Shown piece after piece: positions 1 to 207 of a stretch of DNA of 207 bases. Source of the stretch: Escherichia coli (GTDB lineage Bacteria > Pseudomonadota > Gammaproteobacteria > Enterobacterales > Enterobacteriaceae); the NCBI RefSeq assembly GCF_003334255.1, contig NZ_QOWU01000283.1. One strand, given 5' to 3'. How positions within the stretch are numbered: the first letter of the stretch is position 1; each line of letters opens with the position of its first letter. The position numbers and the translations under genes are program-made. The notes beneath the pieces are model-generated. The model made no database searches, was not told the origin of the DNA, and worked only from the letters and a program-made list of their open reading frames with translations.

Positions 1-207
1 CGTGCTGACTTATCTGATGGAACTTTACCAGATGGATTTTGCTGAACTTTCTGAAGCAGTATCCACACACTATCCCAGCCACAAGGGGGTGATCATGACG
101 ATAGCAGAGCAACTGGAAGAGAAAGGTCTGGAGAAAGGTCGTGCTGAAGAGCGCTCCAGATTAGTGCTCATGATGAGACAAAAGGGAAAATCTCTGGAGG
201 AAATCAA
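1..207 (+). CDS. Partial CDS (internal fragment, codon phase starts at base 2): C-terminal region of an Rpn-family (YhgA-like, PDDEXK_7/Transposase_31) recombination-promoting nuclease; paralog not assignable
   Basis: Frame starting at base 2 is open across the window (68 codons), translating to VLTYLMELYQMDFAELSEAVSTHYPSHKGVIMTIAEQLEEKGLEKGRAEERSRLVLMMRQKGKSLEEI. + strand frames 1 and 3 hit stops early (TGA at 43-45 and 42-44). The MTIAEQL start followed by a charged tail with G-spaced repeats (EEKG-LEKG-R) matches the Rpn C-terminal tail as I recall it. Family assignment is from memory, not from a database search. Confidence 0.7.
83..91 (+). promoter_or_regulatory. Internal Shine-Dalgarno / ribosome-binding site for the ATG at 95
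   Basis: AAGGGGGTG differs from the consensus TAAGGAGGTG core at one position (G for A, still able to G-U pair with the anti-SD). It is the only SD-like purine run in the window placed correctly before an ATG. In the host frame it encodes K-G-V. Confidence 0.45.
95..207 (+). CDS. Candidate nested in-frame small ORF (RpnS-like intragenic antitoxin / C-terminal tail protein), 3' end beyond window
   Basis: In-frame ATG at 95-97 is preceded by a strong SD (AAGGGGGTG, 83-91), leaving about 5 nt between the AGGGGG core and the ATG. Product would begin MTIAEQLEEKGLEKGRAEERSRLVLMMRQKGKSLEEI. Internal translation starts producing small tail proteins are described for E. coli rpn genes. Whether this start is used cannot be shown from sequence alone. 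Confidence 0.4.
   Translation, partial: MTIAEQLEEKGLEKGRAEERSRLVLMMRQKGKSLEEI
119..142 (+). repeat. Tandem direct repeat, 2 x 12 bp (GAGAAAGGTCTG / GAGAAAGGTCGT), in-frame, encoding EKGL-EKGR
   Basis: Seen directly: positions 119-130 and 131-142 are identical at the first 10 of 12 bases. Each unit is four codons in the coding frame, so a unit gain or loss would keep the reading frame. Confidence 0.6.

Follow-up and report, generated by a model that had tools for sequence, protein, structure and literature searches.

The stretch of DNA analysed here, 207 nucleotides of Escherichia coli (hereafter, the window), is open from end to end in a single reading frame. In a listing of its open reading frames (ORFs), the sole frame free of stop codons over the 207 bases is +2 (bases 2–205, 68 codons), and its peptide, VLTYLMELYQMDFAELSEAVSTHYPSHKGVIMTIAEQLEEKGLEKGRAEERSRLVLMMRQKGKSLEEI, is identical to the one quoted in a preliminary description of this DNA. 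The features placed on the window are the following:

2..205, plus strand: ORF in frame +2, no stop codon; 3' region of an rpn gene or an rpnSs copy, equivalent to residues 215–282 of the 311-aa RpnL of strain S19-651.
2..94, plus strand: segment before the internal translation initiation site, 31 linker codons, VLTYLMELYQMDFAELSEAVSTHYPSHKGVI; from sequence comparison of copies.
83..91, plus strand: Shine-Dalgarno sequence AAGGGGGTG, an 8/9 match to AAGGAGGTG, with 3 nt spacing to the ATG.
94, plus strand: synonymous SNP, ATC vs ATT (Ile), that splits the genomes matching at 100% (downstream copy) from those matching at 99.5% (full-length gene).
95..97, plus strand: ATG of the internal translation initiation site, the start of the 66-aa RpnS/RpnSs; from alignment to RpnA and YpaA.
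95..207, plus strand: RpnS codons 1–37, covering most of predicted helix 1 (residues 3–29) and the beginning of helix 2.
119..142, plus strand: tandem 12-nt units GAGAAAGGTCTG and GAGAAAGGTCGT (EKGL, EKGR), from RpnS residue 9.
143..154, plus strand: degenerate third unit, AEER, directly after the two 12-nt units.

The informative features of the window are the internal start, the Shine-Dalgarno sequence, and the 12-nt repeats, none of which the preliminary description mentions. Zhong et al. 2023 (PMC10400941) found such an internal start in every E. coli rpn gene and showed that the RpnS products act as antitoxins, binding the full-length toxic DNase, RpnL, and blocking it. In the full-length protein, segment 2–94 is the linker joining the nuclease domain to the tail; in a downstream copy, it is a remnant that has been kept and probably serves as a 5' leader or expression region. 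The second listed ORF (45 aa, TTG start, minus strand) is without any support, and an Rfam search of both window strands gave no match at E ≤ 1. An imperfect inverted repeat within the coding sequence, GAAAATCT...AGATTTTC (11 pairs, 8-nt loop), occupies window positions 186–207 plus 8 nt beyond (L001 8186–8215; also L001 7744–7773, the L-numbers denoting loci). It was flagged as terminator-like on the minus strand, is found in main and downstream copies, and is probably due to chance.

The locus is present in 53 of 5,426 complete E. coli genomes, always on the chromosome, and plasmid and phage collections held no match to it. The element that carries it is an integrative conjugative element (ICE) of the SPI-7/PFGI-1 type, in which it occupies the ssb–pilL interval; encoded nearby are the replication proteins STY4528 and STY4534, topoisomerase III, TraD, a PFL_4669 family protein, and the TIGR03747/TIGR03759 ICE proteins. 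Prophages, plasmids, and defense islands had been named earlier as frequent settings of such genes; the setting here is an ICE on the chromosome. A gene annotated as ‘restriction endonuclease’ (L001 11686–12285), conserved in L002, also sits among the genes for conjugative transfer, with an ICE protein gene on one side and traD on the other.

Taken by itself, the 68-aa peptide reaches Rpn profiles only below threshold, with E = 1.3e-3 and 18.7 bits against TIGR01784 (Rpn family; curated cutoff, 52.1 bits) and E = 2e-3 against the RpnA model. The Pfam match anticipated for this peptide did not appear, as the search returned no domain. The family assignment therefore rests on context. Scores on TIGR01784 are 115.7 bits for the full-length ICE protein carrying the window tail and 101.9 bits for the full-length protein encoded next to the tail copy, both above the cutoff of 52.1, while a 122-aa downstream ORF scores 31.6 bits, under it. 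The full-length 311-aa protein also matches Pfam PF04754 (Transposase_31/YhgA-like) at 3.4e-59 over residues 12–205. These matches of the carrier bear out the preliminary description of the peptide as an Rpn (YhgA-like) C-terminal tail. Because the window starts at residue 215 and PF04754 ends at 205, the window lies wholly past the nuclease domain; what it encodes is the antitoxin half (RpnS, from the ATG at 95–97), not the toxic nuclease.

The full-length ICE protein shares 36–39% identity with each of the K-12 proteins RpnA, RpnB, RpnC, RpnD, and RpnE, and, by this measure of sequence, is a distinct Rpn paralog. In an alignment, it has the D(V)L...IEHQS columns in common with RpnA/C/E, and these are the presumed catalytic positions of RpnA. 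Searched by sequence against the PDB, the full-length protein had no meaningful match. PADLOC 2023 had no model matching the full-length protein, and the sole match of the small protein in it was to DpdH, at chance level.

Only two complete E. coli chromosomes, 2015C-3121 and STEC2018-553, contain the window at 100% DNA identity. In both, it falls in a 5'-truncated copy that follows a complete rpn CDS of 307 aa at a distance of 74 bp and comes directly behind the intrinsic terminator hairpin of that full-length gene (GCCTGCCTTGTGCAGGCG plus a T-run, from a terminator scan); only 59 codons are open ahead of the ATG. This neighbouring full-length gene carries the window's tail type, minus one 12-nt unit and with three amino-acid differences. 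Thirteen other genomes match at 99.5%, differing by the single synonymous SNP at base 94, and here the window is the 3' end of a 311-aa CDS annotated ‘Rpn family recombination-promoting nuclease’. The PD-(D/E)XK domain, whose absence upstream was to count against the preliminary description, is present in the 99.5% genomes; in the two 100% genomes the window ORF, with its 59 codons before the ATG, has none, although an intact rpn lies 74 bp upstream. An identical 92-aa stand-alone gene call occurs on 193 contigs. Most probably, the window is a stand-alone, 5'-truncated copy (rpnSs) behind the terminator of a full-length rpn, a placement against the main gene that turns on one synonymous SNP and hence on thin evidence.

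The window Met (M246 in the ICE protein) aligns with the verified internal start of RpnA, M244, in a shared context, HK(E/G)xxMTIAE, and also with residue 1 of YpaA/RpnESs; this motif is common to all five K-12 paralogs. The Shine-Dalgarno sequence, strong and near-consensus, is encoded by conserved H-K-G codons (H-K-E in RpnA) and is kept in 21 of 21 copies examined. In RpnA, the K240R/E241D/M244L substitutions abolish RpnAS (PMC10400941). From the ATG, the ORF of the matching genomes is 66 aa long and opens with MTIAEQLE, followed by 4-aa repeats. By BLASTP, the small protein matches RpnAS weakly (E = 8e-4) and has no match to YpaA.

An AF2 model of the 66-aa product places helices at residues 3–29, 34–40, and 45–53, with a mean pLDDT of 76. 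The predicted layout is consistent with the crystal structure of RpnAS (PDB 7TH0), which has three helices, the first of them long (PMC10400941). Foldseek found nothing significant for the model in the PDB (best E of 0.65, HTH domains on top, and 7TH0 outside the top 50). In a PDB profile search with an RpnS alignment, designer PPR (pentatricopeptide) and other helical-repeat proteins ranked highest, an artefact of summed weak per-repeat matches to an EKG-rich, G-x-EE-rich helix, and the match to 7TH0 in this search is circular because RpnAS was included in the profile. Profile searches with Rpn tails should therefore be read with caution, as they can give apparently strong E-values to helical-repeat proteins.

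Within the predicted first helix, a repeat search identified an exact 10-nt repeat with a period of 12 (window 119–128 and 131–140), a two-copy 12-nt repeat that TRF did not report. The 4-aa repeats described for the family consist of one hydrophobic and three charged/Gly residues and start 8–20 residues past the Met, in the long first helix (PMC10400941); the window repeats, which begin at RpnS residue 9, fall inside this range. Across the 12 loci, the repeat region varies between two and nine four-residue units, and the number differs even within genomes, being unequal in the main and downstream genes of six of the nine loci with copies (2 vs 3, 5 vs 3, 7 vs 3). Since RpnCS neutralises RpnCL only at matching repeat numbers (PMC10400941), a 3-unit downstream copy, going by the RpnC experiment, would not neutralise an adjacent 2-unit RpnL.

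The catalogue of 12 loci includes three without a downstream copy (APEC E19035, TUM9803, GF60), eight with one (among them 2015C-3121 and S19-651), and one, SCU-171, with two. A small RpnS-type gene on the same strand, related to the locus's own tail, follows the main gene directly in 2015C-3121, STEC2018-553, 2013C-3033, SCU-171, NCTC9112, EC17CM2, VTB97420v, and GF4. The tails are of two types, A (that of the window, ending ...SRLVLMMRQKGKSLEEIKDFLDLTDEQLLQALDYVPVQRNGALNQD) and B (ending ...KKALEATYASVRRMSDMGMSTEVIKQALQLSDEQIREALHN). Together with the spread in repeat number, the two types show that tails do vary between copies, in keeping with the earlier statement on their variability. The 13 S19-651-type genomes combine both, with a type-A tail on the full-length gene and a type-B downstream copy (L002 8095–8721); in S19-651, the A and B tails are identical through the repeats (EKGLEKGRAEER) and diverge immediately after.

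What the downstream copies have kept and lost is informative about their product. All 10 retain the Shine-Dalgarno sequence, the ATG, and an intact ORF of 61–70 aa. Upstream of the ATG, the remnant of the main gene is cut at two independent junctions, ~168 nt or ~85 nt before it, the minimum retained by both junction types corresponding to window bases ~17–94; it amounts to 59, 28, or 13 codons depending on the lineage and is frameshifted by a 1-nt deletion in NCTC9112. Retention of the Shine-Dalgarno sequence, ATG, and ORF beside a remnant that is cut or frameshifted argues for the ATG-initiated small protein, and not the 122-aa ORF, as the conserved product. RefSeq start codons for the downstream copies vary, yielding products of 122, 117, 87, or 66 aa (L001 7927–8295; L002 8368–8721; L004 2701–2901), and so do the names given to the rpnS copies: ‘transposase’, ‘hypothetical protein’, ‘DUF433 domain-containing protein’, and ‘RpnC/YadD family protein’.

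Every unit ends in a common hairpin, GCCTGCC(A)TTGTGCAGGCG, with a T-run, and the flank past the last unit is identical in all loci, so the extra units were inserted right after the T-run. Between the T-run and the point where rpn homology resumes there is a filler, either 23 nt long (type 1, GGTAGTTTCTGGCAGTGACAGAT, L001 7914–7936) or 19 nt long (type 2, ATCAATCAGTCTGGTAAAT, L005 ~2569–2587), the latter holding rearranged pieces of the gene sequence GGTAAATCAATCA. Neither filler matches the native 3' flank. We considered a microhomology model of the duplication junction, based on ATTGAGCYG in the native 3' flank and in the gene, and set it aside as unsupported, the fillers being unlike the native flank. 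In SCU-171 (L003 3522–4356), the two copies have identical 126-aa ORFs with the same WP accession; a few SNPs set their tails and 3' UTRs apart, a pattern suggestive of one tandem duplication after another. Two further SNP patterns involve both gene positions: judged by its tail and 3'-UTR SNPs, the main gene of S19-651 is closer to the downstream copy of 2015C-3121 than to the main gene of 2015C-3121, and one SNP block upstream of the ATG is shared by the main gene of NCTC9112 and the downstream copy of S19-651. As sequence patterns, they point to exchange between the main and downstream positions.

Taken together, we read the window as the 5' portion of an antitoxin module of RpnS type, belonging to an Rpn toxin–antitoxin (antiphage) locus located between ssb and pilL of an SPI-7/PFGI-1-class ICE of E. 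coli, and put the probability of this reading at about 0.8. If its homologs RpnA, RpnC, and RpnP2 are a guide, the small protein would be translated on its own from the ATG. It would fold into a three-helix domain whose long helix 1 pairs with the identical segment of RpnL, and this pairing would block the PD-(D/E)XK DNase activity of RpnL, with the number of 4-aa repeats setting which RpnL is neutralised. An antiphage role of the locus is likewise presumed from its homologs. The variable tail is flanked by a conserved stretch, reaching to about window base 154, and by the common terminator, and recombination in these flanks could join a downstream copy to the nuclease gene; the window tail does sit on a full-length gene in genomes of the S19-651 type.

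Within this reading, the downstream copy itself may have one of three roles: that of an additional or non-cognate antitoxin, of an alternative tail kept in store, or of a relic. The last of these, a decaying duplicate or displaced old tail neither expressed nor selected, is doubtful but deserves the most weight among the alternatives. The copy follows a strong intrinsic terminator, a scan for the sigma-70 consensus detected no promoter in the gene interior or the remnant, and inspection of window 17–94 by eye gave none above 6/12. The repeat number is unlike that of the adjacent RpnL in six of the nine loci with copies, K-12 ypaA is marked as a pseudogene in RefSeq, and copy number varies from 0 to 2, which makes the copies dispensable. 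Tests of synonymous versus non-synonymous changes and of codon position in the pre-ATG segment had few substitutions to work with, too few to show purifying selection. Against a relic stand the Shine-Dalgarno sequence, ATG, and uninterrupted ORF of 10 out of 10 downstream copies, preserved next to a remnant that is variously truncated or frameshifted, and the detectable synthesis of the analogous YpaA/RpnESs (PMC10400941).

Alternatively, the window could come from the 3' part of a single full-length rpnL/rpnS gene and thus encode the RpnL tail with RpnS nested in it, as it does in the 13 complete genomes where it ends a 311-aa Rpn CDS, one synonymous SNP away. We regard this as unlikely, since both exact matches fall in the truncated downstream copy and, compared with the window, the main genes of those two genomes have lost 12 nt and carry a non-synonymous change.

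A wider proposal concerns what the stand-alone copies could be for, and we offer it as speculative and rather improbable. The units behind the ICE rpn, each made of a conserved 5' part, a variable tail, and a conserved terminator, might form a recombinational cassette store. Exchange of stored copies with the expressed gene, perhaps helped along by the Rpn nuclease itself, would reset the tail type and the number of repeats and so re-key toxin–antitoxin pairing, either under phage counter-defence or where ICEs compete. Stored copies that are mismatched would then serve as silent alternatives or act against the RpnL of related ICEs on arrival, neutralising it. Compatible with such a store are the occurrence of the window tail as a stored copy in some strains and as part of the expressed gene in others, the mosaic SNP blocks between positions, and the repeat mismatch in six of nine loci.

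Two other readings fare far worse. In 2015C-3121, STEC2018-553, SCU-171, and 2013C-3033, RefSeq annotates the downstream copy as a 122-aa, GTG-initiated ‘transposase’ (L001 7927–8295), and it is very improbable that this ORF is a real product acting in transposition. Its N-terminal extension is unconserved (59, 28, or 13 codons) and frameshifted in NCTC9112, and one copy is annotated in four different ways. The 122-aa product has no transposase domain: NCBIfam matches its Rpn tail only, and Pfam gave no significant domain, with only weak DUF433, MerR, and HTH matches (E ≥ 0.004). Rpn proteins have moreover been argued to be non-transposases, with no inverted repeats or target-site duplications for rpn genes (Zhong et al., PMC10400941). 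The 122-aa copy did not match PF14261 (DUF4351) either, a domain used for some stand-alone RpnS proteins (PMC10400941). That the signal stems from a non-coding RNA or minus-strand gene overlapping the window, as the 45-aa TTG ORF and the terminator-like minus-strand inverted repeat from position 186 might suggest, has a negligible chance, given the empty Rfam search (E ≤ 1) and a plus-strand frame backed by homology over five paralogs.

The short gene carrying four RefSeq labels is best read as a stand-alone RpnS-type antitoxin copy of an ICE-borne Rpn paralog, which is above all a correction of its annotation. The locus also provides a compact natural series, with zero to two stored copies, two tail types, and two to nine repeat units that are often mismatched within a genome. 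This series could serve to test two questions raised by Zhong et al., namely how the dodecamer repeats gain and lose units and whether downstream copies act as functional antitoxins, spare parts, or relics.

One of the closest known systems is K-12 RpnA (YhgA) with its nested RpnAS. The ICE locus shares with it the PF04754 N-terminal domain of the full-length gene, the aligned Shine-Dalgarno sequence and ATG (M244 vs M246), and the MTIAE start, together with a site of 4-aa repeat insertion early in helix 1; three helices, the first of them long, are predicted for it by the model. It differs in an overall identity of 37%, in a tail that can barely be aligned (E = 8e-4), and in its setting, since RpnA is a chromosomal single gene without a downstream copy, whereas the present locus is ICE-borne and carries zero to two extra tail copies.

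Stand-alone small homologs have been described downstream of rpnE (ypaA, or rpnESs, detectably expressed) and of rpnC (rpnCSs), and such downstream copies have been reported to disappear either through deletion or by becoming fused to the N-terminal region of rpn (PMC10400941). As in rpnE–ypaA and rpnC–rpnCSs, a second RpnS-type ORF with an MTIAE start lies directly downstream on the same strand at the ICE locus, and the pattern of deletion or fusion is seen here too, in S19-651 compared with 2015C-3121. K-12 ypaA begins 12 nt past the rpnE stop and has no coding remnant, whereas the ICE copies keep 85–168 nt of upstream rpn sequence, follow a terminator and carry one of their own, number up to two, and in one genome mix a type-A main gene with a type-B downstream copy. 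In RefSeq, ypaA (L009 3817–4002) is a pseudogene in MG1655, yet its tagged protein (RpnESs) was detected by Zhong et al. (PMC10400941).

The plasmid-encoded RpnP2LS is the member shown to protect against phages (PMC10400941). By description, the present locus resembles it as an Rpn toxin–antitoxin module on a mobile element with a presumed antiphage role; it resides on an ICE rather than a plasmid and had no match in the plasmid collection.

In cdiA and rhs loci, orphan toxin-tip/immunity cassettes lie downstream of the main gene. The resemblance is one of analogy only: 5'-truncated, variable 3' ends located downstream and bounded by conserved sequence that would allow recombinational replacement. 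In cdiA/rhs, the variation lies in the toxin tip, and immunity is encoded by a gene of its own, whereas here it is the antitoxin/oligomerisation tail, nested in the toxin gene, that varies. For rpn loci, RpnL itself has been suggested to drive rearrangements, and fusions were noted (Zhong et al., PMC10400941); the cassette store, even if true, would thus extend an idea already proposed there. The nested RpnS, the hypervariable repeats, the downstream rpnSs copies, and the fusions are all described by Zhong et al. 2023, and the locus fits their account. The departures from it are matters of detail: an uncharacterised, ICE-borne paralog whose downstream copies retain an upstream remnant and their own terminator, occur in up to two copies, and have tail types that can be mixed with that of the main gene.
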